64,000 bases of DNA from a bacterium (GCA_035454885.1 DATIGE010000038.1:55239-119238), one strand, 5' to 3'. Shown: positions 4,017-22,198, counted from the first letter of the stretch. Notes: generated from the letters alone by a model not told the origin. Translations and numbers: made by a program.

Positions 4017-4256
4017 ATGTCATCCGCGGTCGAGCAACGGGTGAAAGCGATCATCGCAGAACAGCTCGGAGTGTCGGAGGACGAAGTCGGTCCGTCGGAT
4101 TTGATCGTCGACGACCTGGGCGCGGACTCCGTCGACATCGCCGAGCTCATCATGGCGCTTGAAGAAGAGTTCGAGGTCGACATCTCCGATGAGGACGCGG
4201 AAAAGATGAGGAGCGTCAAGGATACCGTCGACTACGTCCGGAAGACCGTCCCATGA
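4017..4256 (+). CDS. acpP: Acyl carrier protein
   Basis: 79 aa with [20 protein letters not shown] phosphopantetheine-attachment Ser motif (DSL/DSV). Confidence 0.9.
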
Positions 4257-4705
4257 AACTTCTGATCGCCTCCGATCACGGCGGGTTCGCACTCAAGTCC
4301 CGCATCGTCGCCTTCCTGAGTAAGAGAAAGGTCCATATCGAGGACCTCGGCACGGATTCCGACGGATCCGTCGATTATCCCGACTTTGCCATCAAGGTGG
4401 CCGAGCGTGTCTCGCAGGGCCATGCGGACGCGGGCGTGCTCGTCTGCGGTACGGGCATCGGCATGTGCATCGTGGCCAACAAGTTCAGAAACGTCCGCGC
4501 CGCCGTCGTCAGCGATCCCTATTCTGCGAGAATGGCCAAGGAGCACAACAACGCCAACATCCTCTGCGTGGGCGGCCGCGTGTTGGAGGAGAACGGCAAG
4601 GCCGAAGAGATTCTCGCGGCCTGGCTGGACGCCCAATATCAAGGCGGCCGCCACGACCGCCGGCTGGACAAGATCCGGCAAATCGAAAAACAGAATTTCA
4701 AATAA
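4253..4705 (+). CDS. rpiB: Ribose-5-phosphate isomerase B (RpiB/LacAB family)
   Basis: 150 aa [15 protein letters not shown]...[16 protein letters not shown]... RpiB signature. ATGA overlap with acpP stop. Confidence 0.85.
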
Positions 4706-5677
4706 TCAAAGCCACTTCTTCTTCCGGAAAAAGTAAATCAGCCCCCCCGCGACCGCCACCAAGAGCCCCAACGTCATGTAGTATCCGTGCTCCCATTCCA
4801 GCTCCGGCATGTGTTTGAAGTTCATCCCGTAGATTCCGGTGATGACGGTCAAGGGCAGCATGATGGCGGCGGAGATCGTCAGGAGTTTCATGACCTCGTT
4901 CGCCTTGTTGGAGGAGGTGAGCAGGTGGGCCTCGATCAGCCCGCCGATGGCGTCCCGGTTGGATTCGGTGCGGTCGGAGATCCTCACCAGGTGGTCCCGG
5001 ACGTTGGAAAGGTAGGGGATTGAGATGGGAAGGACCTCGTCGTAACCTTCCTTGACCAAGCTCATCAGCATGTCGATCTGCTGGGCACAGATTCGCTTCA
5101 AACGCGCCAAGTTCCTCTTAAGACTGAAGATTTCAGGCAGGAGGTTCTTTTCATGCTGTTCCAGGACGTTGTCCTCCAGGACGGCGATCCGGCGGTCGAA
5201 CTGGTCCAGGACGGGCATATAAAGGTTGACCATCTCGTCCAGGAGCCGGGCCATGAGGAAGTCCGCGCTCCGCATCGCAGACTTGGGGTTCCGCTCCGCC
5301 CGCTCCTTCGCCATGGCGGTGCTGCGGAGTTTGGGCTTGTGGTAGGTCACCAGGAAATTCGCCCCCAAAAACATGTCGAGCTCGGCCGTCTTGAATTCCC
5401 GGTCGGCCGACTCCGCCGGCAGTACCTCGTGAAAGATGAGAAAGATGTAATCGCCGTACTGGTCGATCTTGGGCTGGTGTCTCGGAGAGAGACAGTCGTC
5501 GATGGTCAGCGGGTGAAAGTTGAAGGCGACGTCCAGGAGTTCGGTCTCCTCCGGCGTCGGTTTTTCAATGTCCACCCACGTCACGCGTGTCTTGTCGGCG
5601 ACCAGGGCGCGGATCTCGGAGGCGTTCTTCACCTCCTGCATGCCGGAGGTCTCGCTGTAGGTGAAGATCGTCAGCAT
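4706..5677 (-). CDS. corA: Magnesium/cobalt transporter CorA
   Basis: 323 aa. C-terminal two TM helices with YGMNF (GMN) motif: IYGMNFKHMPELEWEHGYYMTLGLLVAVAGGLIYFFRKKKW. Confidence 0.85.
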   Translation of the reverse strand: MLTIFTYSETSGMQEVKNASEIRALVADKTRVTWVDIEKPTPEETELLDVAFNFHPLTIDDCLSPRHQPKIDQYGDYIFLIFHEVLPAESADREFKTAELDMFLGANFLVTYHKPKLRSTAMAKERAERNPKSAMRSADFLMARLLDEMVNLYMPVLDQFDRRIAVLEDNVLEQHEKNLLPEIFSLKRNLARLKRICAQQIDMLMSLVKEGYDEVLPISIPYLSNVRDHLVRISDRTESNRDAIGGLIEAHLLTSSNKANEVMKLLTISAAIMLPLTVITGIYGMNFKHMPELEWEHGYYMTLGLLVAVAGGLIYFFRKKKWL

Positions 5678-5787
5678 ACGGGGATTGTATCGATTTGTAG
5701 CAGACGCCCGGAGACCGGTCCATCCCTTTTGACGGGGAAAAAATTCAGCCCGAGTATTCGCATGTATACGGAACTTGCCGAACTTTC

Positions 5788-5871
5788 TTGACTAAAGCGG
5801 CTCATCCATGTTTTTTATGCCGCCGTAACCTGAGCATAATCAAAACCTAGCATCACGGAGGGGGTTCTAAG
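5788..5871 (+). promoter_or_regulatory. Candidate promoter and strong RBS upstream of first beta-helix array gene
   Basis: TTGACT at 5788-5793 with AT-rich stretch downstream (ttttttatgc, gcataatc). GGAGGGGG Shine-Dalgarno at 5857-5864, 7 nt before ATG 5872. Promoter assignment is tentative. Confidence 0.25.
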
Positions 5872-8151
5872 ATGCAAAATCAATCACGCCGTAACTCCAT
5901 TTTTTTCGCGCTGACCGCGCTGGCTCTTCCGTTCACAGCCTTAACGGCCGGCACCGCTCACGCGGATTGCACGACGCCCGTCACGCACACGGTGACGAGC
6001 CTGGCCGATGACGGCTCGGTGGGCACCCTCCGGCAGCTCATCAACTCGGCGACGGTCGAAGACTGCGACACCATCGACATCCCGGCCGGGACGATCGTCT
6101 ATGACGGGACGGGTCCAGGGCAGATTCAGATTCGAAAGAACATTACCCTCCACGGCGCCGGCGCCGGGACGACCATCATCGACGCCAACGGTCCCAATAC
6201 GGCCGATCGCGCCTTCGAGATCGATCCGGATGACACCGGGGTCGGCGTGACGATGGAAGGGGTTACGGTTCAGAATGGACTCCCCGGCACGGACGGCGGC
6301 GGTATTATCCTCTCAAATAACGGATCCCTGCGACTGATCGACAGCGCGGTGATCGGGAATGAGGCGAGCGGCAATGGCGGTGGAATCCACTTGGATGATG
6401 ACGGAAGTTCATTGACCCTCGATAACTCGGTCATTTCGCACAACATCGCTTCGAGCGACGGTGGCGGCATTTATTTCGCGGGATCGGGCACCTCCGGCAT
6501 TATTGCCAATGGGTCCGTCATTTCCGATAACGAAGCCGGGAGCGAGGGTGGTGGAATCTATCACAGCGACGGCCAGTTGGAGGTCTTCAACAGCAGGATC
6601 ATCGACAACAAGTCGGGCAGTGACGGCGGCGGCATTTCCAATGAATTCGCCGCGATTACCCTGGTCGATTCTGAGATCAGTGGAAATGTGGCGGATTCCA
6701 GCGGCGGCGGTATCTACAACAATTACACGACCTTCATCGATAACTGTGTCATTAGCAATAATAAGACAACCAGCGACAACGACGGCGGCGGCATTTACAA
6801 CGACGACCTCTTATACATTGTCAAGAGCACGGTCTCAGGAAACCGCGCCGAGGGCGACGCCGGCGGGATCTATAACAGTGAAGGGATCACGATCGAAGAC
6901 ACAACGATTTCCGACAACATCGCGGACGTCGATGGAGACAACACGGGTGGCTGCGATGGCGGTTGCGGCGGAGGCATCTACAATAATTTCACCCTGACGC
7001 TCATTCGGAGCATCGTGAGCGGGAATACCTCCAACGGTGAAGCCGACGGCGGCGGGATCTACCAGAATGACTATGCGATCATCGTCGATTCTCTCATAGC
7101 CAACAACACGACAACGAACGGCGACGGCGGGGGCATCAGTGCCTGCAGCGAGCCGACATCAATCCGCAACACGACAATCTCCGGCAATCAGGCGAAGGGT
7201 GAGAGCAATGATGCTAGCGGTGAGGATGCCGAGGGCGGCGGCATATACAACTGCGAGCCGATGGATATCATCAACTCCACGATCGTGAACAATTCCGCCG
7301 ACGGCAGCGGCGGCGGTATCTATAATGACGAAGAGTTGACCCTCAATAACGTCACCATTGCGTTTAATACGGCGGACGCGAACGAGGGCGGCCTTTCCTT
7401 GGGCGACGGCGGCGGTGTTTACAACAACGCGCGGGTCGTCATGGTCAATAGCATCATCGCGGGAAATGCAGATGTCGGTCCGGGCCCCGGCGCCCCGGAT
7501 TGCTTCAATGATTTCAGCGGCGTTTCAAATGAAATGACTGCGGGTGGTCCCAACCTTGTCCAGGACACCTCCAACTGCGAAATCACGGGTTTCAAGGAAT
7601 TGGTTGTGGAGGCCGATCCTCTCTTTGACGCGGCGGGATTGGCCGACAACAGCGGCACCTCTGCGGGCGATCCTGACAGTCTTCTAGTCATCCAAACGGT
7701 CTCGCTCCAAAGCGGGAGCCCGGCCGTTGACGCCGGCGATACAGGGGTCTGTGCGACAACCGACGAGAGAGGTGTCAGCCGTCCCCAGGGAGCCGAATGT
7801 GACCTGGGTGCCGTGGAGGTTGAAGGTGGGGCGGGCCCTATCGACGATGACGACGATGACGACGACGGCGTCCTGGACGTCGACGACAACTGTCCCTCCG
7901 ATGCGAACGCCGACCAGGCCGATACTGACGGGGATGGCGTCGGCGACGCCTGCGACAACTGCGTGGACGATGACAACGCGGATCAGGCCGACGCGGACGG
8001 CGACGGCATCGGCGACGCCTGTGATTCAGGAGGTGGCGGCGGCGGATGCTCGCTCATGACGGCCGGTTCTTCCGGAGGCGGCCTTGTGGGTCTCCTCTCT
8101 CTCATGACCGTAGCGGGGATGTTTATGATCCGAAAGAAATCGTTCAAAAAA
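5872..8151 (+). CDS. Array unit A: secreted CSLREA-like/PbH1 beta-helix repeat protein with TSP3 Ca-binding repeats and full C-terminal GGCSL-TM-RKK sorting tag (no stop codon; continues in-frame into unit B)
   Basis: Signal peptide MQNQSRRNSIFFALTALALPFTALTAGTAHA. N-domain [30 protein letters not shown]. About 15 repeats of [LIV]x[DN]SxIxxNxAxxxGGGIYN. LADNSGTSAGDPDS...GSPAVDAGD...RPQGAECDLGAVE. DDDDDDDG plus DxDxDGxGDxCDNC (thrombospondin type 3) repeats. Tail GGGGGGCSLMTAGSSGGGLVGLLSLMTVAGMFMIRKKSFKK. Part of 1491-aa ORF 5872..10347. Confidence 0.8.
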
Positions 8152-10347
8152 ATGGCGCTCTTGGGCGGATTGGTCCTGCCCTTGATTCCGGCGGTGGCCC
8201 AGGCCGACTGCACGACCCCGGCGACCTTCACGGTCACCAACTGTGGCGACGACGGCTCGGTGGGGACACTCCGCCAGTTGATCCACAGCGCCTCGGTTCA
8301 GGATTGCGACACGATCCAGATCCCGGCCTGTACGATCGTGCTCGACACGGCAGGGTCGACGTTCTTTGCCGAGACGGACGCGAACGCGGACCTGGATGTC
8401 GACAAGAGCATCACGATTCGGGGGGCAGGTCCCGGTAGCACGGTCATCGATGCCGACGGCGCTGTCACAGGCGCCCGCGTCTTTGAAATCGATCCGGACG
8501 ATACCGGCGTTGGCGTTACGTTCCAAGGCCTGACGATCACCGGCGGACAGCCGTCGTCCGGTGAGGGGGGCGGCATTCTGGTCAGCAATCACGGCGTGCT
8601 TACGGTGCTCGATAGCGCCGTTGACGGGAACGACTCGGATACGGTTGCCAGCTCCGCGGGGGGCGGTATCGCCCTGCCGGATGACGGTTCCCTGATTCTG
8701 ACCAACAGTTCGGTCTCCAACAACAAGTCGGGTGATAACGGCGGTGGCCTCTGGTTCTCGTGCGGCGACGCCACCTCGGGAATTATCTCCAACAGCGAAA
8801 TCGACGGAAATACGGCGGTCAGCAACGGCGGTGGCGGCGTCTACATCGACTGCGGAACATTGGAGGTGATCAACAGCCGGATCACGAACAATGTGTCGGA
8901 CGGAAACTATGGCGGCGGTCTTTGGAACGAATACGCTTCCGTGTATGTCCTCAATTCCGACTTTATCGGTAACCGTTCCGAAGGAAGCCAAGGCGGTGGC
9001 ATTGAAAACGACTACACCATCCTGATCGACAATTGCTTGATCCAAGACAACGTGGCGACGAGCTCCTCCGGTTATGGCGGGGGAGTCGCAAACGAGGACG
9101 GCGGGATCATGACCATCATGAACTCGACCATCGACGGTAATCGGGCCGACGACGACGGCGGCGGAATTTACAATGATTATTACGCCGTCAATATCATCAA
9201 TAGCACGATTTCCAACAATGTCGCCGATGCCGACGATGATGGATCCGGCAATGGCGGCGGCATCAGCAACGACGATTGCTATCACCTCTATGTGACCAAC
9301 AGCTTGATCATCAATAACCTGTCCAAAGGTGATATCGGGGGCGGCATTTATCAAGACGGATACGCCATCATCGATAACAGCACCATCGCCGGCAACGTTG
9401 CGGCAAACAATCACGGCGGCGGCATCTATACGGATTGCGAGCCCACGGTGATCCGTAACAGCACGATCTCGGGGAATGCGGCCCTCGGTGACGACGGTTC
9501 TGATGACAGCCAGGGCGGCGGTATTTGGAATACGTACCCCCTGCTCCTCACGAACACCACGATCGCGAACAACCGCGCCGACGGTCATGGCGGCGGAATC
9601 TACTCCGACGATGAAGGTACGAGCCTCAACAATGTCACGATGACCGGCAACGTCGCCGATGCCAATGAAGGTGGCCTCAGTGGCGGCGACGGCGGAGGCA
9701 TTTACAACATTGACCGCGTGGCGGTCACCAACAGCATCCTCGCGGGAAATCTCGACGCCAGCCCCGGCCATGAAGCCCCGGACTGCTACAACAACTTTAC
9801 CATTGACGGAGACAGTATCGAGATCCTTGGCCCCAACCTCATTCAAGACACATCCGGATGCGAACTTCAGGGCCAATTGAGTCTCCTCATAGAAGCGGAT
9901 CCCCTGTTCGCTCCCGCCGGGCTGGCCGACAACGGCGGTTCCGATCAGGGGGACGACCCCAAGGAGCCCGCCAAGACCATCGGTCTCCAAGCCGGGAGCC
10001 CGGCGATCAATGCGGGCGATAATGGGTCCTGCGAACCGACGGATCAGAACGGCGTTGCACGGCCCCAGGGTGACAATTGTGATCTGGGCGCAGTCGAAGT
10101 CTCGGCGGCGGTTGGCCCCGTCGACGACGAGGATGACGACGACGACGGCGTTCTCGACGTGGATGACAACTGCCCCGCTGACGCGAACGCCGACCAGGCC
10201 GATGCGGACGGTGACGGTGTCGGCGACGCCTGCGACAACTGCGTGGACGATGACAACGCCGACCAGGCGGATGCGGATGCCGATGGCATCGGTGACGCCT
10301 GCGATACGGACGGCGGCGGTAGCGGTGGTTGTTCTTTGATTCGATAA
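8152..10347 (+). CDS. Array unit B: paralogous beta-helix repeat protein, TSP3 repeats, truncated tag ending GGCSLIR-stop
   Basis: In-frame ATG at 8152 begins signal peptide [18 protein letters not shown] followed by [29 protein letters not shown]. Same repeat architecture as unit A. Ends ...[17 protein letters not shown] with TAA at 10345-10347. Confidence 0.75.
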
Positions 10348-10415
10348 ATGACATTGGGGGGCGGCCTCGCGGGGCCGTCCCCCTCCATTTGCTCACAACC
10401 CGAGGAGCGACTCTT

Positions 10416-12809
10416 ATGACCAAACGTCTCGGCATACTCTCAATCTTTGCCTCCTTTATCATCACGGGACTCGCCCTGAGCTCTCCAGCTACGGCAGCCA
10501 CCTGGACCGTGACCAACGCCGCGGATGACGGCTCCTCGGGGACCCTCCGGACGATCATCGAAAATCCGGCCGTCATCGACGGCGACGTGATCGTCTTCGA
10601 TGCCAGCGTCACCACCGTCACCCTGACCGATGACCTCGACATCAACAAGAGCATCACGATCCGCGGAAACGGCGCGGGGACAACGATCATCGACGCCAAT
10701 GGCGCGGTCACGAACGACCGGGCCATCGACATCGACGCCGATGACCGGGGGGTGCATGTCGCCATCGAGGCCCTCACGGTCCAGGGGGGGCGTGAGGACT
10801 CGGGAACCGGCGGCGGCATTCGGATTCGCAACTCCGGCTCCCTCCTTCTGAGGGATTGCGAGGTCAAGGACAACCAGGTGACTGCGGGATCGACCGACGG
10901 CGGGGGTATTGCCATCGAATCCGACGGCGCCTTGGTCGTCGAAAACTCCACGATCTCGGACAACGCGGCGACGCAGGACGGCGGCGGCATTTATGCAAAC
11001 GCCGGCTTCATCGAAATCAAGAACAGCTCGATCGAGAACAATATCTCAAGCTTCGGCGCTTCCACCACGGACGGGGACGGCGGCGGCATCTACTCGGAAG
11101 ATGGAACCCTTAATATCATCGATACCGCCATCAAAGGAAACATCGCCGGCGACAACGACAGCACGTTCGACGATCCGGAGGATACGAGCAGCGAGGGCGG
11201 CGGCATCTACACGACGAGCGATCAATCGGCCACGATCACGGGGTCCGGCGCCTGCGAGATCAGCGGCAACAAGTCCGGTGGTGATGGCGGTGGAATTCAT
11301 AACGGCGAACTCATGTCGATCGATAACTGCCTCATCGACGATAACCATGCGATGAATGACCACGATGGCGGCGGCATCTACACGGAAGATCTTCTGACCC
11401 TGACGGACAGCACCGTCAGCAACAACGACGCCGAGGACAACGGGGGCGGCATCTACAACAGCGGATCACTCACAATCTTGAACAGCACGATCTCGGGCAA
11501 CACGGCCGACGTGGACGCGGACCCCGATGGAAGCCAGGGCGGAGGCATCTACACGGATAACTACTTCTTCCTCAGTGGCAGCGTCGTCCGCGGCAATATC
11601 TCCGTGAGCGGAGAAGGCGGCGGCATCTACTCGGACAGCTCCAACTACATCATCATCGAATCGAGCGTCATCGCCGACAACGAAGCCAGCGATCACGACG
11701 CCGGCGGGATCTATAACACCGGCGCCCCGATGATCATCCGCAACAGCACGATCTCCGGAAACCGGGCCCTCGGAGATGAGAACGGCGGCGGGACGGACAG
11801 TATCGGCGGCGGCATCGTCTCCTATTATCCCCTCATGATGTCGAACACGACCGTGGCCAACAACGAGGCCGACGGCGACGGCGGCGGCATCTATGCCTCC
11901 GGCGGCGACGATCACTTCTTCAACAACGTCACTATTTCGGGCAACGTCGCGGACCAAGAGGGCGGGGCCGATGGCGTCGGCGGCGGAATCTACAACGACG
12001 CCACCGGCGTCACGATTACCAATTCGATCCTCGCCGACAACTCCGATGACGCAACCGCGCCCGACTGCTTCAGCGATTTCTCGGCTGGTGCGGTTTTTAC
12101 GTCCCTCAGCGCCAATCTCATCGAAGTTACGACCGGATGCGACGTGACCGGTTTGGGACTCGTCACCGGCGACCCGGCCTTGGCCGCCCTGGCGGACAAT
12201 GGTGGCCCGGACGCCGGCGACCCCGACAGCCCCGAGCCGATCCTTACCAGCGCCATCGCGGCCGGCAGCGCGGCCTTGGACGCGGGCGACAGCGGGACCT
12301 GCGAGTTGGATGACGAGCGCGGTACGAGCCGGCCTCAAGGTCCGGCCTGCGATTTGGGGGCCTTTGAGCTCTTCACCGATACGGACGGCGACGGCATCGA
12401 GGACAACTCGGACAACTGCCCGTCGACCGCCAACGCCGGACAGGAAGACGGCGATGCCGACGGCGTCGGAGACGTCTGCGACAACTGCGCGGACGATGCC
12501 AACGCCGATCAGGCCGACACCGACGGCGACGGAACGGGAGACGCCTGCGAGGCGGCCGTGACGCCTGCCACGGATACCGACGGGGACGGCGTCCCGGATT
12601 CGACGGATAATTGCGATGCCGTCGCCAACGCGGACCAGGCAGATGCAGACGCTGACGGGATCGGCGACGCGTGTGACGCGGAAGACGGCGGGGGCGGTTG
12701 CAGCCTCAACGCCGGTTCCACCGCCGCGCGCGGAGCCACGGAGGGTCTTTCAATGTTCCTGATGTCGATCCTGGCCTTTGCCGGATTATGCCTGTTCCGG
12801 GGTAGGCGC
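10416..12809 (+). CDS. Array unit C: paralogous beta-helix repeat protein with TSP3 repeats and full GGCSL-TM-RGRR sorting tag (no stop; continues into unit D)
   Basis: GAGGAG RBS 9-14 nt upstream of ATG 10416. Signal peptide [41 protein letters not shown]-domain. GGGIY repeats. Four TSP3 repeats. Tail [41 protein letters not shown]. First unit of 3089-aa ORF 10329..19598. Confidence 0.8.
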
Positions 12810-15068
12810 GTGGCCCGCCGTGCCCTTCCGGCCGCGGCGATCCTGCTCCTGTTTTCCAGCACCGGCCGAGCGGCGGACATAACCGTCACGAGCCTCCTGG
12901 ACGACGGTACACCAGGGACACTCCGCAATGCGATCGCGACCGCGCTGGACGGGGACGTGATCATCGTTCCGGCTGGAACCATCGTACTCACCCTGGCGGG
13001 CGGCGCCTTTGACGCCGACACATTCCCGGATTTGGACATTACGAAAACAATCACCATCCAGGGCGCCGGGGCCGGAAGCACCTTCATCGACGGCAGCGGC
13101 GACCTGACCGCCGACCGCGTCTTTCATATCGATCCCAACGACACCGGGGCGGGGGCGACCCTCGAAGGCATGACCATCCAGGCCGGAAAGCCTTCGGCCA
13201 ACGGCGGCGGCGTCCTCATCGACAACCGGGGCTCCCTGACCCTTGTCGACAGCGTCGTGAGCGACAACGAGACCAATGGAGCGGACGGCGGCGGCATTTA
13301 TCTGAATGAGGGCGCCTTGGCCGTGATCCGCTCGACCGTCCGGACCAACGTCGCCGACGGCAACGGCGGAGGCATCTACAATACCAGCGGCTCCCTGATC
13401 ATCTCCGATGGGAGTTCCGTCACCGGCAACATCGCGACCTCCTCCGGGGGAGGCATCTATACCGATGCGGGAGGGCTCGACGTCATCAACAGCCAAATCA
13501 ACAACAACGATGCGGACAGCGACGGCGGCGGTATCTACAACGGCTACACGGCCGTGGTCCTGAACAATTCGGATTTGAGCGGCAATACGGCCGAGGGCAA
13601 CGGCGGCGGCGTTTACAATGGTTATACGCTGCTGATCTCTGCCTCCACGGTCTCCCACAATCAGGCCCTGAATGACAGTGACGGCGGCGCTGTCTTCAAT
13701 GACGTGGAGCTCTGGGTCGAAGACAGTACCCTTTCCGACAATGGAGCCGATGACGATGGCGGCGCCATCTACAACAACTCAACGGCCGTGATCGAGCGCA
13801 GCACGATCGCCGACAATGCCACCGATATCGACTCCGACGGCTCCGAGGGCAATGGCGGCGGGATCAACACCGACGGTGATCTCTACGTGCGGGAGAGCAG
13901 CATCCTGAGAAACGTGGCCGGCGGCGGCGGCGTCGGGGGCGGTATCTCCGGCACGGGCAGTGAGTACACGGTCATTGATCGGAGCACCATTGCCGACAAC
14001 GTGGCCGCGGATAACGACGGCGGAGGCATCTATTTCGACAATTCCCAGACCATCATCACGAACAGCACCATCTCCGGCAACATCGCCCTGGGGGATCAGC
14101 ACAATTCGGCCTCAACCGACAGCCAGGGCGGCGGCATTTGGCACGACGAAGCGCTGACCATGACCAATTGTACGGTCGTCGGGAACCGTGCCGACGGCGA
14201 CGGCGGTGGGATCTACGTGAATTCCGACAGCGATGCGAACATCATCCTGAGCAACGTGACGATCACGGGCAATACCGCCGATGCCAACGAAGGAGGCTTC
14301 TCGGGCGGCGAAGGCGGAGGCGTCTTCAACGATCAGGGTGTGCTGCTCACCAATTCCATCATCGCCGGGAACACGGACGCCAGCTTCATTTCCACTTCCC
14401 CCGATTGCTACAGCAACTTTACCGGGGATGGTAACAACTTCACCGTCGTCGGACCGAATATCATCCAAAATCTGGATGGTTGCGAGGTCGTGGGAGACGT
14501 CTCAAGTCTCCGGAGCGACGATCCGCTCTTCGACCCGGCCGGCCTGGCCGACAACGGTGGCCCGACCCAGACCTTGGCCCTTCAGGCCGCGAGCCCTGCC
14601 TTGGACGTGGGTGACAACGGCTCCTGCGAACTCACCGACCAGCGCGGCACTGCGCGGCCCCAAGGCGCGGCTTGCGACTTGGGCGCCTTCGAATTGGAGC
14701 CCGACGCCGATGGCGACGGGATTCCCAATACTTTGGACAACTGCCCCGACGTCTCCAATGCGGACCAAACCGACACGGACGGCGACGGCGCGGGTGACGC
14801 CTGCGACACGGACGACGACGGAGACGGCGTCGCCGACGGGGTCGACAACTGCCCTCTGGTCGCCAACGCGGACCAGGCCGATGAAGACGGCGACGGGATC
14901 GGCGCCGCCTGCGACACCGATGACACCGGCGGCGGCACGACCGGCGGCGGAGGAAACGGTGGGGGATGCGGCCTAGTCGCGAGTGGTGATGCGAAGCCTC
15001 ATGTCACCTTCTGGGCCGTGTTCGCCGGCCTTGCGGCCTTAGCGGCGCTTCGGATGAGGAAAATCGCG
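12810..15068 (+). CDS. Array unit D: paralogous beta-helix repeat protein with TSP3 repeats and full GGCGL-TM-RMRK tag (no stop; continues into unit E); start codon uncertain (GTG)
   Basis: Signal-peptide-like (M/V)[20 protein letters not shown] followed by [24 protein letters not shown]. No in-frame ATG at the boundary, so GTG 12810 is proposed. Tail [39 protein letters not shown]. Confidence 0.65.
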
Positions 15069-17411
15069 ATGAAAAAAGGCTTTTGGATTTTGGCGCTGGC
15101 GTCATTGTTGCTTCCGTCCACCGCCGGTGCGGTTACCTACAACGTCGATCCAAACTCGATGGGTGCGGCGCCGACCGTTCCGGACGGAGATCCGGGGTCC
15201 CTGCGTTTCTATCTCGAGAACATCGCGCTCGCGGACGGCGACACCGTCGTCATCCCGTCAGGCACGGTCAATCTCGACTCAACCATCGGGGAGATTGAAA
15301 TCAGGCGGAACGTAACGATCCAGGGCGCAGGCGCTTCCGACACCATCATCGACGGAAACGGGGCCGGAGGCGGCGACGATCGCGTCTTCAGCATCGACCC
15401 GGACGACACCGGCATCGCGGTGACCATCTCGGGGGTCACCATCACGGGCGGCGATGTGGGCGCCAGCGGCGGCGGCATTCTCCTGAGCTGGACAGCGAGT
15501 CTGACCCTCATTGATTCGGTGGTCGACGGAAACCACTGCACCACCAGCGGTGGCGGCATCGATGTGGAGGATCAGGGAACCCTCGTGCTCATCAACAGCA
15601 CGGTCTCCAACAACACCGCGGACAACGACGGCGGCGGTATCTGGAGCGGCGAGGGGTTCGTCCATGTCATCGGCAACAGCGTCATTGGGCCCAATAATCA
15701 GGCCCTCGGCAGCTACGGCGGCGGCATTTACACTAGCGGCGGCGTCCTTCAGATCGTGGACAGCCAGGTCACGGGCAACCGCGCGGACGATTATGGCGGC
15801 GGGCTCTATCTCGACAGCAACCAAGATACCTCGGCCTATCTCCTGAATTGCGAGATCACCAACAACGCGACCATCAACGATGACGGCGGGGGGATCTATA
15901 ACGACAGCACCCTCTTCATCGACAACTGCCGGATCGCCGGAAACACAGCAGACGGAGACGGCGGCGGCATCGACAATAGTGAACATCTCACCCTAATCAA
16001 CAGCACCATCTTCGGCAATCACGCCAACGAAAGCGCGGGTGGTATCTACAACGACGACGGTCTCACAATCAGCAACTCGACCATTTCCGAGAATATCGCC
16101 GACTTTAACGACGACGGTTCCGGCGGTTACGGCGGCGGAATCTACAATAACGACTATCTTTCACTCTCCGACAGCTTGGTCAGCAACAATATTTCAATCA
16201 GCAACAACGGCGGCGGTATCTATTTCAACGATTACGCCGTTCTGGACGGAGTGGCCGTCACGGGCAACATCGCCCAAGACGACGACGGAGGCGGCCTTTA
16301 TGTCGACGGGGACCCGGTTGTCCTACGGAACTGCACCATTTCCGGAAACGCCGCCCGCAACAACAGCGACGGGGGTGGACTTTATACGACCTATGCGATG
16401 GATATCTCCAACACGACCATCGCCAACAATACGGCAGACGGCAACGGCGGCGGACTTTACAACGATTCCGGCGGTGACGGCATCCTTCTCAACAACGTGA
16501 CCATTACGGGTAACGAATCGGACGCGGATGCGGCCGGCGGTGGTGACGGCGGCGGATTCTATGACGACAACTCGGACGCCGTCATGATCAACACGATCAT
16601 CGCGGGCAATACGAGCCCCAACCTGGGGGATGACTGCATCAGCGATTCGACCGCCGGCGCGAGTACGTTGACCTCGGGCGGTCCCAACTTCGTCGGTGTC
16701 GTCGATACCGACTGCGACATTGAGGGCGACGATACGGCCGTCCTGACCGGAGACCCCGGCTTCGCCGCGGCCGGCCTGGCCGACAACAACGGTCCCTTGG
16801 TCGGAGACCCCGAGGCCCCGGTCCGGTTGCAGACGGTTGCCCTGGCCCCGGCCAGTGCCGCGGCCGAAGCGGGCGACAATGCAAGTTGCGCCTTGACCGA
16901 CGAGCGCGGCGTGACCCGGCCCCAGGGCGCCGATTGTGACCTGGGAGCGTTTGAACTGGTCGTGGATACCGACGGCGACGGGGTAAGCGACGACGTCGAC
17001 AACTGCCCCGCTGCATCCAACGCCGATCAGGCGGACGGTGATGCCGACGGTGTGGGCGACGTCTGTGACAACTGTCCGGCGGACGCCAACGCCGACCAGG
17101 CGGACGCGGACGGCGACGGGACGGGCGACGTCTGCGAGGCGCCTCCCGCGGTCTGCGGCAATGGAGACGTGGAGACCGGTGAAGGATGCGACGACGGCGA
17201 TACGGACGCGGGAGACGGTTGCAGCGACACCTGCAGCGTGGAAGCCGGTTTCACCTGTTCCGGGGAGCCCTCCGTCTGCACCGAAACGGCCGGGGACGGC
17301 GGAGGCTGCTCCCTGACGGACGGGGGCACATCGGCGGCTGCGACCGGCCCCTTGATGGCGATTTTCGCAGGTTTAGGGGTCCTGTTTCTCCGTCGCATGG
17401 GGAAAAAAACA
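15069..17411 (+). CDS. Array unit E: paralogous beta-helix repeat protein with TSP3 repeats, Myxococcus-type Cys-rich repeat and full GGCSL-TM-RRMGKK tag (no stop; continues into unit F)
   Basis: GAGGA RBS 8-12 nt upstream of ATG 15069. Signal peptide [39 protein letters not shown] repeats. TSP3 repeats. [35 protein letters not shown] (Myxo_disulf_rpt-like). Tail [39 protein letters not shown]. Confidence 0.75.
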
Positions 17412-19598
17412 ATGAAAAAGGCTCTGTTGGGCATGGGATTTCTGGCCTTGATGCTTCCGGCGGGCACGGTGGGTGCGGCGACCTTTACCGTGACGAAGAT
17501 CACGGACGACGCCCCGGATGGCAACTGCGACGCCGATTGCTCCCTGCGCGAGGCCGTTATTGCGGCCAATGCAAGCGTCGGAGTTGATGACGAAATCGTG
17601 ATTCCGGCCGGAATCTATCAGTTGACCATTGCCGGCGCGGGCGAGGACCTTGCCGCGACGGGCGATCTTGACATTACGGACAATGTGATCATCACCGGAT
17701 CCGGCTCTCTGACGACCGTCATTGAAGGCAATGGTGCCGCCACTGGAGATCGGGTCTTTCATATCGATGCCGGCGCGAGTCCCGGCGTTGCCGCGAGCGT
17801 CGTGATGACCGGCGTCACCATTCAAGGAGGCAATGTCAGTGGGAGCGGGGGTGGAATAAACATCGACAATCGCGGTTTCTTGAGGATCGTAGACAGCCTC
17901 GTCTTTGGAAATGACGCTACAGGCGATGGCGGCGGTATTCACTTGGACGATGACGGTTCGGGCCTAGTCGTGGAAAACTGTACCCTTTCCAATAATATCT
18001 CGGAGGACGATGGCGGAGCCATCAGCAACGACGACGGCTCCCTTCTCGTCAAGAACAGCACGATTGCTGAAAACAAGGCCGGCGATGACGGCAGCGGAAA
18101 CGGCGGCGGCATCTACAACAACGAGGACGGGGCCGAGATCATTGACACCCGGGTCGTTGACAACGAGACTGGAAGTTCGAGCGGCGACGGCGGCGGCATC
18201 ATGAATGACTACGGGGCGATGACCATCACCGGCAGCGGCAACTGCGAAATCAGCGGAAACCGCACCCTTGCCGGCGAGGGTGGGGGAGTCGACAACGAAT
18301 ACACCATGCTGATCGACAACTGCCTGATCGCCGAAAACCAGGCCCTGGACGACAACGACGGCGGCGGTGTCTACAACGACGATGAGATGGTGATCCTGAA
18401 CAGCACGATCAGCGGGAACCGCTCCGAAGACAGCGGCGGGGGCGTCTATAACTACTACCACATCACCATCGACAACAGCACGATCGCCGACAACATCGGA
18501 GACACCGACGAGGATGGAGGCGGCGGCGGCGAAGGCGGCGGCGGGATCCACTTCGACGACTGGAGCACGGTCAGTAACTCCATCATTTCCGGAAACACAC
18601 ATCTGACCGGAGAGGGCGGCGGTATCGACGCCTATTACTACTTCGTCCTCGATAACTGCCTCATTACCGGCAACACCGCGGCGGACAATGACGGCGGCGG
18701 GATTGCGACCGATTACCCCGGCGTCATCCGGAACACTCTGATCAGCGACAATCGTGCCCTTGGGGATCAGAATAATTCGGCCACGGACGACAGCAATGGC
18801 GGCGGCATTGCGACAGACTACCCGCTCCAGATCATCAACACGACCATTGTCAACAACCAGGCGGATGGCCATGGCGGCGGAATTTGGAGTGATGATAAGC
18901 TGGACTTGAACAACGTGACGATCGCCTTCAACACGTCGGACGCGAATGAGGGAGGTTTTACGGGCGGCGACGGCGGCGGAATTTACAACGATGATGACAT
19001 GGTATTCAGCAATACCCTCATTGCCGGCAATACCGACGCGAGCCCCGGCGCCGAGGCCCCGGATTGCCTCAACGACTTCACGGGTGCCGGGAACAGCATG
19101 GCTTCGAGCGGGCCCAACATAGTCCAAGACCCGTCTGGTTGTGAGATCACCGGTGATCCGACGGGCGTCCTGAATGTGGACCCCCTCTTTGATCTGGCGG
19201 GTCTGGCGGACAACGGCGGTCGGTTCGCCGGCGACGAGCCGACCTCGGTGGTCCAAAGCCTCTCCCTGCAGGCCGGGAGCCCCGCGATTGACGCCGGTAA
19301 CAACGCCACCTGCGACCCGACCGACCAGGTCGGTACCGATCGTCCCGTCGGCGACGCCTGTGACCTGGGCGCCTTGGAGGTTACAACCCCCGCGGCCCCC
19401 CCGGTTCCGCCGGTCGTGCCTGCTGTTTGTGGAAACGGCGACGTGGAGACCGGTGAGGGCTGCGATGATGGCGACACCACTGCGGGCGACGGTTGCAGCG
19501 CTACCTGTGTGGTCGAAGATGGCTTTACCTGCACGGGTGAACCGTCGGTCTGTACCGAGGAGTCGGGAGGCAGCGGCGGTTGCAGCTTGATTAGATAA
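17412..19598 (+). CDS. Array unit F: paralogous beta-helix repeat protein with canonical CSLREA motif, Myxococcus-type Cys-rich repeat, no TSP3 repeats, truncated tag GGCSLIR-stop
   Basis: ATG 17412. Signal peptide [23 protein letters not shown]-domain ...[31 protein letters not shown] repeats. Ends ...[56 protein letters not shown] with TAA 19596-19598. Confidence 0.75.
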
Positions 19599-19604
19599 TA
19601 CGAA

Positions 19605-19676
19605 GGGCGAACACGAGGTTCGCCCCGACACTATCTCGAAGGCGGCCCTCGAAAGAGGGTCGCCTTTTTTGTTTTG
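19605..19676 (+). terminator. Tandem hairpins / rho-independent terminator after beta-helix array
   Basis: gggcgaacacgaggttcgccc hairpin, then ggcggccctc-gaaa-gagggtcgcc stem followed by TTTTTTGTTTT. Confidence 0.6.
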
Positions 19677-19678
19677 CC

Positions 19679-20986
19679 ATGCTACCCCCCGAATTCATGA
19701 TGTCTTACCTTCAAAAACAGGACCCCGACATCCACGCCGCCATCCACGGCGAGACGGAGCGCCAGGAATTCACCCTGGAAATGATCGCGTCCGAGAACTT
19801 CGTCTCGCGGGCCGTTTTGGAGGCGGCCGGGAGCGTGATGACGAACAAATACGCCGAGGGCTACCCCGGTAAGCGCTATTACGGCGGCTGCGAGTTCGTG
19901 GACCGGGCGGAGGACCTGGCGCGGGACCGGGTCAAGAGGCTCTTTGGCGCCGAATACGCCAACGTCCAGCCGCACTCCGGCTCCCAGGCCAACATGGGCG
20001 TGTATTTCACGTTCCTCAAGCCAGGAGATAAGGTCATGGGGATGAACCTGTCCCATGGCGGCCACCTGACGCACGGATCACCCGTCAATTTTTCCGGTCA
20101 ACTTTATAATTTTGCCGCCTACGGGGTGGACCCCAAGACGGGGCGGATCGACTACGACCGGTGCGCGGATCAGGCCAAGAAGGAACGTCCCAAGATGATC
20201 ACGGTGGGAGCCTCGGCCTATTCACGCAACATCGACTACAAGAAGTTCCGGGAGATCGCGGATTCCGTCGGGGCCTTTCTCTTCGCCGACATCGCCCACC
20301 CGGCGGGACTGATCGCGAAGAAGCTCCACAACGACCCCGTGCCGCATTGCCATGTGGTGACCTCGACGACGCACAAGACCCTCCGGGGACCCCGCGGCGG
20401 CTTGATCCTGATCGGCAAGGACTACGAGAACCCCTTCGGCCTCGTCGCGCCCAAATCGGGGCGCGTGAAGAAGATGAGCGAACTGATCGACTCGATGATC
20501 ATCCCGGGCATCCAGGGCGGGCCGCTCATGCACATTATCGCCGCCAAGGCGGTGGCCTTTGAGGAGGCCCTGCAGCCGGCGTTCGAGGACTACGCCCGCC
20601 AGATCATCAAGAACGCGCAGGCCCTCGCCCAAACGCTGGTGGACCTGGGCTACAACCTGGTCTCCGGCGGGACGGACAATCACCTGATGCTGGTGGACTT
20701 GAGAAACAGGAAGGTCACCGGCAAGGACGCCCAAGAGGCCCTCGAAGAGGCCGGGATCACGGTCAACAAGAACGCGGTCCCCTTCGACGACCAGAGTCCT
20801 CTCATCACCAGCGGCATCCGGATCGGCACCGCGGCCCTCACGACGCGGGGTATGAAGGAACCGGAGATGAAGACGATCGGGGGTTGGATCCATACGGTCC
20901 TGTCTGACCTCAAGAATGAAAAGGCGAAGCGCGAGGTGAGGGAGAGTATCCGCGCGCTCTGCAAGAAATTCCCCCTGTATTTGTGA
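19679..20986 (+). CDS. glyA: Serine hydroxymethyltransferase
   Basis: 435 aa. ...[42 protein letters not shown]...[14 protein letters not shown]... PLP Lys motif. True start may be the second or third Met (MSYLQ...) at ~19700. Confidence 0.9.
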
Positions 20987-21444
20987 AATGCCCTTTCTGT
21001 AACCATCCCAACAGCAGCGTCGTCGACAGCCGCGACTCCAAGGAAGGCGAGACGATCAGGCGCCGGCGCGAGTGCGACACGTGCGGCAAGCGGTTTACCA
21101 CCTACGAGCGCGTCGAGGAGCTCCTCCCCCTCGTCATCAAAAAGGACGGCCGCCGCGAGCCGTTTGACCGCAAGAAGATCGTCGGCGGCATCCAGAAGGC
21201 CTGCGAGAAGAGGCCCGTGCCCATGGAGAAGATCGAGGAGACCGTCGACCGGATCGAGCGGGAGATCGTCGAATTGGGCGAGAAAGAAGTGAACTCCAAG
21301 GAGATCGGCGAGCGGATCATGCGCGCCTTGCACGATCTGGATCACGTCGCCTACGTCCGATTCGCCTCCGTCTACCGGGACTTCAAGGACGTGAACCAAT
21401 TCCTAAACGAACTGCAGGGGCTGCTCAACGATAAGAAGAAATAA
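20983..21444 (+). CDS. nrdR: Transcriptional repressor NrdR
   Basis: 153 aa [46 protein letters not shown]... Zinc ribbon plus ATP-cone. ATGA overlap with glyA. Confidence 0.9.
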
Positions 21445-22198
21445 AGTCCTGAATTCGCGCATCCGTCGCCGCCGCGACGCTTTCCGAGGCCCGATGCAGG
21501 ACCGTGATGCCCCGCGTGAAAGGGTCGACCATCACCTGAAATTCGATGAAGACGGGCTCGCCGCGAAGAAAACCGAAGAGGGTATGGCGAAAGCATCGGC
21601 CCCTCCGGTGGCATGCCCGCTCCGCGAGCGCATTTAAGTCGTCGTCCGTCGGCAGGGGGTTCCGTGACGGCGGATGGACATGCGCCACCCAGGTCACGTC
21701 GAAAAAAGATTCCTCGAAAACATCGTAGGTTTCGCCTCCCAGGACGGACCGGTCGGACGCCGAGGGAGAGCCCTCGCGCACCTCGTAGCGCGATGGCCGA
21801 GAGGCCGGTCCGTGGCGGAAGAGCGAGTAGTGGTGACCCGTCAGTTGGGAGCGATTGATGAGGTAGTCGACGATCTCCTGAGGGAGGGTCGTATGAGGGA
21901 GCCGGACGGTGAAGGCCGAACGGTAGGGCGTCCACGCGTTGGGAGAACGGTGACTCGCGCCGGCGGGAAAGAAGACCGAGGGCGCGTCGGAGAAATGCGT
22001 TTCCAAGTGGTTTCCATGGACCGGTCCGGGAAGGGGCTCCGACGCAGAAACGGCCATGGGCGCACCGGCCCTGGCCTGCACGTAGGCGTTCGCGGCGAGA
22101 TAGGCTTGGACGGCGAATAGACCCAAAGACATGGCGCTTTCTTCGCCGGGGGAGCGTTCAAAGTTGCCAACTAAAGATACCGGTGTTTGCGGAACCAT
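21425..22198 (-). CDS. Hypothetical protein (start uncertain)
   Basis: 257 aa ORF with balanced composition, unlike surrounding Arg/Gly-rich spurious frames. Contains [16 protein letters not shown] (HxHP...T.D, weakly JAMM-like). Convergent 20-nt overlap with nrdR. Confidence 0.4.

Follow-up and report, generated by a model that had tools for sequence, protein, structure and literature searches.

A short GGCSLIR ending without a membrane helix, conserved at the gene ends of concatenated surface proteins: a candidate short form of a cysteine-type sorting signal

Introduction

Why would reading frames that carry a complete cysteine-containing sorting tag at every internal boundary end in a clipped version of the same tag? 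This question is raised by a stretch of bacterial DNA of 64,000 nucleotides (nt) (GCA_035454885.1 DATIGE010000038.1:55239-119238), here called the window, whose numbering we use throughout. Two large open reading frames (ORFs) on the + strand lie between corA and glyA. ORF1 (5872-10347) encodes 1491 amino acids (aa) in two concatenated units, A and B, and ORF2 (10416-19598) encodes 3060 aa in four, C to F. At the 3' end of each is the same short tail, GGCSLIR.

To our knowledge, the C-terminal sorting signals described in prokaryotes are all tripartite: a signature is followed by a hydrophobic helix and then by a basic cluster, and it is the helix that is assumed to present the signature to a membrane-embedded enzyme. 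The tail at issue here has the signature without the other two parts.

Results

Both frames end in the same peptide, written in different codons

The tail of unit B, GGCSLIR followed by TAA, was read at 10324-10347 (+ strand), and a second copy closes unit F at 19575-19598 (+ strand). From 10315 to 10347 the codons are GGC GGT AGC GGT GGT TGT TCT TTG ATT CGA TAA; those of 19566-19598, GGA GGC AGC GGC GGT TGC AGC TTG ATT AGA TAA, encode the same peptide. The two stretches differ at 8 of 33 bases, including a TCT/AGC switch at serine and a CGA/AGA change at arginine. An earlier note on this DNA had claimed such a shared truncated peptide in different codons, and the nucleotide strings that it quoted are exact. 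Its claim that the helix and basic cluster are missing from units B and F was also borne out. After C-S the tail has only L-[I/V], without a membrane helix, and a single Arg stands where a cluster of Arg/Lys would be. All four internal tags of the window have both elements.

The tail is conserved among relatives at the protein level

Homologues were gathered from the protein database, the contigs encoding those proteins, genome and metagenome scans, and a motif scan of all fetched sequence. The query for locus searches was an alignment of 6 units, one of 17 units being too divergent. This survey of relatives gave 26 distinct gene ends from at least 11 assemblies besides the window's. Twenty of the 26 end in C-[S/G]-L-[I/V]-R-stop (CSLIR 17, CSLVR 2, CGLIR 1), and four are near variants that retain C-S-L-I (CSLIRE, CSLIRN, CSLIPHP and CSLIAG). 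Only two have a full tripartite tag at the gene end (L005, 14311; L081, 16115). The 20 exact tails and four near variants span at least 12 assemblies. Cys is present in 24/24 short tails, with GG before it in 23 and SG in L146, a CSLIR ending.

Codon usage in the tails is scrambled. Ser is written TCT, TCC, TCG, AGC or AGT; Leu TTG, CTG or CTA; Ile ATT or ATC; Arg CGA, CGT, CGC, CGG or AGA; and the stop is TAA or TAG. For 16 tails, the mean pairwise synonymous difference (pS) was 0.67 and the non-synonymous difference (pN) 0.09, the latter coming almost wholly from TCN/AGY serine switches. In the seven codons just upstream, the corresponding values were 0.62 and 0.55. The tail peptide is kept even between units of just 41-51% identity. 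Because synonymous change is saturated while the peptide stays fixed, purifying selection must act on the peptide itself. The aligned tails of homologues thus bear out the earlier note on this point, and comparison of sequences establishes that purifying selection maintains the tail as a peptide, which is neither an artefact nor a recent truncation. Moreover, codons that differ across assemblies and within one genome exclude gene conversion and a nucleotide-level function.

The motif is rare outside this family. The 2.18 Mb fetched contain 15,935 stop-to-stop ORFs with a length of 60 aa or more. Of these, 23 end in C[SGA][LM][IV]x(0-3)-stop, and 22 of the 23 belong to the beta-helix family described below or to its lineage. 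By this count, the match of the two window tails is far beyond chance.

The tail also has features of its own. In the set of tails known at the time of comparison, [I/V] occupied position +3 (counted from Cys) in 21/21, versus 5/29 full tags (Fisher p 1e-9), and Arg occupied +4 in 20/21, versus 0/29 (Fisher p 4e-13). Hence, [IV]-R follows CSL in tails and in none of the 29 full tags. The four variant tails differ only past C-S-L-I (RE, RN, PHP and AG). Variation confined to this part is easier to reconcile with a motif of the Cys-aliphatic-X type than with a strict need for the carboxylate of a terminal Arg. NCBIfam and Pfam models gave no match to the short tails by themselves, and a literature search on CSLIR, GGCSL and bacterial polyproteins with sorting tags found neither the short tail nor the concatenated architecture.

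No hidden or decayed helix follows the tail

A frameshift or read-through into a hidden helix was ruled out, since an in-frame stop lies within about 24 codons or fewer for the ends in the window and in L002. The frame of ORF2, open from 10323, encodes no helix or basic cluster. Moreover, the gaps from stop to next start, about 16 to 107 nt, are too short to encode a helix. A decayed tag after the ORF1 stop, hinted at by a likeness of MT-GGGL to tag A, was no better than shuffles (p 0.49). Among 14 ends tested for a remnant of tag DNA downstream, none was significant against shuffles after correction, the lowest uncorrected p being 0.04, and the DNA 3' of the tails is unrelated from end to end. 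These results agree with the statement in the earlier note that no full tail appears downstream in another frame. That note had also named homologues with full tags, together with frameshifted remnants at the window ends, as what would count against its view. Two relatives (L005, L081) do end in full tags, but the window ends are not frameshifted remnants.

Full tags serve as internal junctions between complete secreted units

Every unit is built from the same four elements, beginning with a signal peptide and a choice-of-anchor Q right-handed beta-helix and continuing with a stalk and a C-terminal tag. The ORF1 product is identical to NCBI protein P0001, 'choice-of-anchor Q domain-containing protein [bacterium]'. 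Model NF041518 matched once per unit, with 102.8 and 200.6 bits (cut-off 25 bits; E 8e-30 and 2e-60), and also matched L166 and L161 gene 1. The beta-helix was matched by PF13229 and by Chlamydia PMP repeats as well. The stalk consists of thrombospondin type 3 repeats or of cysteine-rich acidic repeats, the latter preceding the tag in units E and F. In every unit a signal peptide is predicted, with a basic n-region, a hydrophobic core and an AxA-type site that can be read directly off the sequence. These signal peptides place the tail outside the cytoplasm.

The tail terminates a low-complexity Gly/Thr/Ser/Asp linker. For unit B, an AlphaFold model built on a shallow alignment was confident for the beta-helix at residues 23-586 and gave a predicted local distance difference test score (pLDDT) below 50 over the last 150 residues. 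The model is compatible with a flexible and exposed C-terminal stalk and tail. Unit B is closest to unit A (58% identity, versus 51% to unit F); on these identities, the terminal units are not one clade.

Four junctions on the + strand link the units within the frames. At A/B (8023-8202), the full tag DSGGGGGGCSLMTAGSSGGGLVGLLSLMTVAGMFMIRKKSFKK continues in frame into the signal peptide of unit B. The junctions C/D (12687-12881), whose loop is devoid of Met, D/E (14943-15134) and E/F (17295-17477) likewise combine a full tag with the next signal peptide. The E/F tag gave the window's top match to MYXO-CTERM, at 16.6 bits against a curated cut-off of 20. In order, the full tags across the lineage have GGC[S/A]L, a polar spacer (about 10-15 residues), a hydrophobic helix and a loop, 4-15 residues long, with 3-6 Arg/Lys. 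In the window the signature is GGC[S/G]L, and the loops have 7-10 residues, of which 5-6 are Arg/Lys. The signal-peptide core of the next unit and its AxA-type site come straight after this basic loop, so that each junction is a predicted hairpin of helix, basic loop and helix. G-G-C is invariant in 28/28 full tags, and Leu is found at +2 in at least 90%.

Across the window and its relatives we counted about 28 internal junctions, and none contains a stop codon. Sixteen of 29 junction loops scanned (one a duplicate) have no Met. A GGAG-type Shine–Dalgarno element precedes 15/17 true gene starts. The Met-less loops, the lack of stops between units and the placement of Shine–Dalgarno elements at true starts rule out separate proteins made from internal translation starts. 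In-frame concatenation of 2 to 4 units per frame was seen in the window (5872-19598) and in L001, L002-L006, L081, L160 and L163. This joining of complete secreted units is probably a finding in its own right.

GGCSL or SGCSL full tags with a helix and basic cluster were also seen on other proteins, at L021 6599-7315, L131 378-3551 and L156 2021-2728. These three loci come from unrelated metagenome bins, one of them labelled Pseudomonadota. The GGCSL full tag is thus more widespread than the lineage that bears the short tail.

The short tail is not confined to polyproteins

The earlier note had treated the tail as specific to the terminal units of long ORFs, which proved too narrow. Single-unit genes encoding 700-725 aa also have it (L003, L004, L166, P0308). 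Upstream of the single-unit gene in L166, the gene at 1-1115 ends prematurely and its Gly/Thr linker goes on in another frame; this is probably an assembly-error frameshift or a pseudogene.

The tail is found on an unrelated passenger as well. In L161, a 371-aa protein encoded at 1114-2229 ends in GGCGLIR. Its passenger has no beta-helix or choice-of-anchor Q match, and no PDB relatives of it were found. Outside this lineage the protein has 42 homologues, and 36 of them close with a full tripartite tag that contains Cys. The remaining ones are P0363, whose tag is of lower hydrophobicity, and five that look like fragments. Judged from these homologues, the short tail can take the place of a complete cysteine tag even when the passenger is unrelated. 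The homologues P0363-P0403, two of which NCBI names Phycisphaerae, have a differing cysteine tag of the form CCGA-x-GPVAPLGLAIGMLLLSRF-x-GYR...RRR.

In L170, the closest relative (GlyA 94% identical to that of the window), an F-like unit at 2-442 ends in GGCSLIR. It has thrombospondin type 3 repeats in place of the cysteine-rich acidic repeats of unit F, an arrangement indicating that stalk modules are exchanged independently of the tail.

One genome has both kinds of ending. Of the polyproteins on contig Ga0315281_10001602 (L081/L163), the first closes with a full tag and the second with CSLVR. The terminal units (L081 15960-16115 versus L163 8630-8959) share about 80% DNA identity up to GGTTGCAGCCTGGTT (GGCSLV), where homology ends abruptly. 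Past this point, one copy continues into the helix, and the other reads CGC TAG and then a terminator. A break exactly after CSLV points to a swap of the 3' cassette. In a comparison of OEP, TetR and RpiB from the flanks, the distance of this genome to the window, L001 and SMAG_U1372 was about the same as the distances among those three. On the evidence of these gene ends, the short tail is a lineage-restricted alternative ending that has been retained.

Transcription and genomic context of the locus

The earlier note placed the tail at the end of each apparent operon, which is too strong for ORF1. Directly 3' of the ORF1 stop, between the two cistrons, lies a GC hairpin (10356-10384, + strand) with a 12-bp stem and no T-run (-33.3 kcal/mol, z -2.9), which was not called as a terminator. 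ORF2 starts 68 nt past the ORF1 stop and has its own GAGGAG. It is followed by an intrinsic terminator (19638-19677, + strand) with a 13-bp stem and then a T-run. ORF1 and ORF2 are probably on a single transcript, with a canonical terminator after ORF2 only. Twelve bases comprising the ORF1 stop and 9 nt beyond it, TAAATGACATTG, are the same at window 10345-10356 and at L001 14492-14503, where they belong to a 69%-identical orthologue of ORF1; the remaining spacer differs.

The interval between rpiB/corA and glyA (window 4253-19700) is a variable island. It holds 1-3 genes of the family in the window, L001, L002, L006, L160, L161, L163, L166 and L170, and in the close relatives L167, L168 and L171 it is empty or has a NACHT/TPR gene. 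Farther along, a 257-aa ORF on the - strand (21425-22198) has a JAMM-like HxH...D pattern and no Pfam match. Unannotated genes of 200-236 aa occupy the same place after nrdR in L160, L162/L163, L166 and L170.

Discussion

Likeness to known sorting systems

The closest known system is MYXO-CTERM with its myxosortases MrtX, MrtC and MrtP, which are glutamic intramembrane proteases of the CPBP/Rce1-like kind. For cysteine-type tags, cleavage by Rce1-like CPBP proteases after a modified Cys has been proposed (10.1101/2023.06.07.544157). In the case of TraA, cleavage by such a protease has been shown and lipidation of the Cys is presumed (PMC11980579). The full tags described here resemble MYXO-CTERM in their Gly-rich signature, invariant Cys, polar spacer, membrane helix and Arg/Lys cluster. 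The clients are also alike, being adhesin-like proteins with signal peptides, thrombospondin type 3 repeats and cysteine-rich acidic repeats. Scanned singly, 11/28 full tags matched the MYXO-CTERM model (TIGR03901) at E<=1, the best at 2.4e-4. Yet there are clear differences. The signature here is GGCSL with a single Cys, whereas that of MYXO-CTERM is GCGC, and the full tags here serve about 28 times as internal junctions. A fused protein with an internal MYXO-CTERM has been published as a single case, MXAN_5598 (PMC11980579). The host may also differ: its nearest named group by GlyA is 'Deltaproteobacteria bacterium' metagenome-assembled genomes (82%), which does not place it in Myxococcota. 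As for the short tail, it lacks the helix and basic cluster of MYXO-CTERM, two of the three tripartite parts, so we do not file it as a member of the family.

Other systems are less similar. JDVT-CTERM (MrtJ) shares the single invariant Cys and tripartite layout and was the second most frequent match, weakly hit by 7/28 full tags. However, its nearly invariant Asp-Pro in the helix occurs in 0/28 tags here, and it is found once per genome beside its protease, whereas this locus has many tags and no adjacent protease. GlyGly-CTERM, the rhombosortase substrate, has a comparable Gly-rich signature, helix and basic tail after an unstructured linker, and, like the tags here, it is linked to surface retention. 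But it has no invariant Cys, and only 2/28 tags weakly match one of its models (SVAGG). The passengers themselves are members of the choice-of-anchor Q/CSLREA proteins (NF041518, TIGR04214), a family named for its alternative C-terminal anchors, although the GGCSLIR end and the in-frame concatenation of units match no NCBIfam or Pfam model.

Without its helix, the tail calls to mind the CaaX box processed by Rce1, likewise a short C-terminal motif with an invariant Cys, small or aliphatic residues, a variable end and no helix. There are differences here too. The Cys of the tail is at -5 (-6 or -7 in variants) and is followed by Ser/Gly and then two aliphatics, whereas the CaaX Cys is at -4. 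Moreover, soluble transferases prenylate CaaX proteins in the cytosol, whereas the tail proteins have signal peptides and are exported.

A possible helix-free short form of a cysteine-type signal

That CSLIR may be a distinct recognition element, one of the options raised in the earlier note, fits the comparative data best. More specifically, we lean, with some reserve, toward reading GGC[S/G]L[I/V]R-COOH as a helix-free short form of a cysteine-type sorting signal of the MYXO-CTERM kind, read by the same cysteine-directed machinery. The invariant GGC and the kept Leu of the full tags indicate that machinery reading GGCSL is still under selection in this lineage.

How might such a signal work? 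Each frame would yield a multi-spanning precursor, in which each tag helix stops transfer and the signal peptide that follows restarts export. Release of the individual units would then fall to signal peptidase and a tag-directed protease. The helix and basic loop of the full tags would be needed for topology only, at those places where a next unit must be exported, and GGCSL would be read by the cysteine-directed machinery, an enzyme that we assume. As proposed for MYXO-CTERM, a lipid transferase would act on the Cys and a CPBP/Rce1-type glutamic protease would then cut just after it. No stop-transfer is needed at the gene end, and so the signature could remain there with S-L-[I/V]-R as a short aliphatic-basic leaving peptide. 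Its fate might be much like that of the Cys-aliphatic-aliphatic-X tails on which Rce1-type enzymes act. This would leave the modified Cys as the last residue of the mature protein, as in the internal units.

Several observations weigh against this reading. In both systems where the helix has been removed, TraA and VesB, the protein was released into the medium. The MYXO-CTERM lipid transferase is itself only proposed, and if it is Lgt-like, a membrane-held substrate should be required. The position of the tail Cys, one residue farther from the end than that of CaaX, also counts against it. Full and short forms occur on the near-identical units of L081/L163, and so the two forms could function differently. 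The best window tag falls below the curated cut-off of TIGR03901; the authors of that model call for lineage-specific ones. Finally, inspection of the 64-kb window and of flanking sequence up to 10 kb long revealed no CPBP protease, rhombosortase or exosortase, and no multi-pass protease of any kind. Housekeeping myxosortases are not expected beside their clients (10.1101/2023.06.07.544157), so the lack of a neighbouring protease is what one would expect if the enzyme is housekeeping.

Alternatives

A possible but rather less probable explanation is that the short tail marks a release form. Proteins ending in the helix-less GGCSLIR would be secreted or shed in soluble form, since the inner membrane could not hold them, nor could an intramembrane sorting enzyme process them. 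Anchoring at the surface would be limited to internal units and to those few end units that have full tags, and the tail would be kept secondarily. There are precedents: TraA without its MYXO-CTERM is released by the type II system (PMC11980579), and VesA/B/C are completely released when a His tag replaces everything after the GG motif (10.64898/2026.02.05.703148). The terminal units of L081/L163, with a full tag versus CSLVR, would resemble anchored and free isoforms. But release does not account for the constancy of S, L, [I/V], R and the stop position in the face of saturated synonymous change, nor for the restriction of [IV]R to tails. It also implies a near-lineage-wide conversion of stand-alone tagged proteins, including the 371-aa passenger that is fully tagged in most homologues elsewhere.

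A narrower version of the sorting-signal reading can be framed, in which the tail, with its helix-free pattern Cys-small-aliphatic-aliphatic-X, corresponds to a CaaX box that works outside the cytoplasm of a bacterium. Its Cys would receive a lipid, and a CPBP/Rce1-type sorting protease would take off the four residues at the end. We regard this specific form as doubtful.

Less likely still, and in our judgement improbable, the tail could be a thiol handle. Through a disulfide or some other thiol bond, a free Cys on a flexible linker would join the protein to an anchored unit or another partner, giving an indirect tether. The invariant Cys and the disordered linker before it are in line with this idea, as is the fact that one precursor yields anchored and helix-free units in fixed ratios. 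However, a disulfide needs the Cys alone, and conserved S-L-[IV]-R of fixed length is not predicted.

The notion of a remnant or artefact, be it a truncated full tag spread by gene conversion or assembly error or a nucleotide-level signal for termination or translational coupling, can point to the full tags at gene ends in L005 and L081 and to the cassette swap after CSLV, but is close to refuted by the at least 12 independent assemblies with codons that differ even inside one genome, by the mutually unrelated downstream sequences with no tag remnant in 14 tests, and by conservation of the peptide between divergent units.

Significance

In one lineage, then, the signature of a cysteine tag is strongly selected, and almost all gene ends have dropped the helix. 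Most genomes of this lineage confine complete tags to the boundaries between concatenated secreted units, where the tags also act as topological linkers. If the tail is processed, recognition of the Cys motif would need no helix, and the link between myxosortases and CaaX processing would become directly testable with a seven-residue peptide. If the tail is truly a CaaX counterpart, it would mean anchoring without a transmembrane segment in the precursor, and it would be the first natural short substrate for prokaryotic Rce1-like enzymes and a minimal handle on the cysteine lipid transferase of the MYXO-CTERM type. If instead it marks release, it would be a natural switch that sets anchored versus free copies made from one precursor. 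On either reading, the locus points to an undescribed route to several surface proteins per reading frame, and the tail offers a simple annotation motif that current family models miss.

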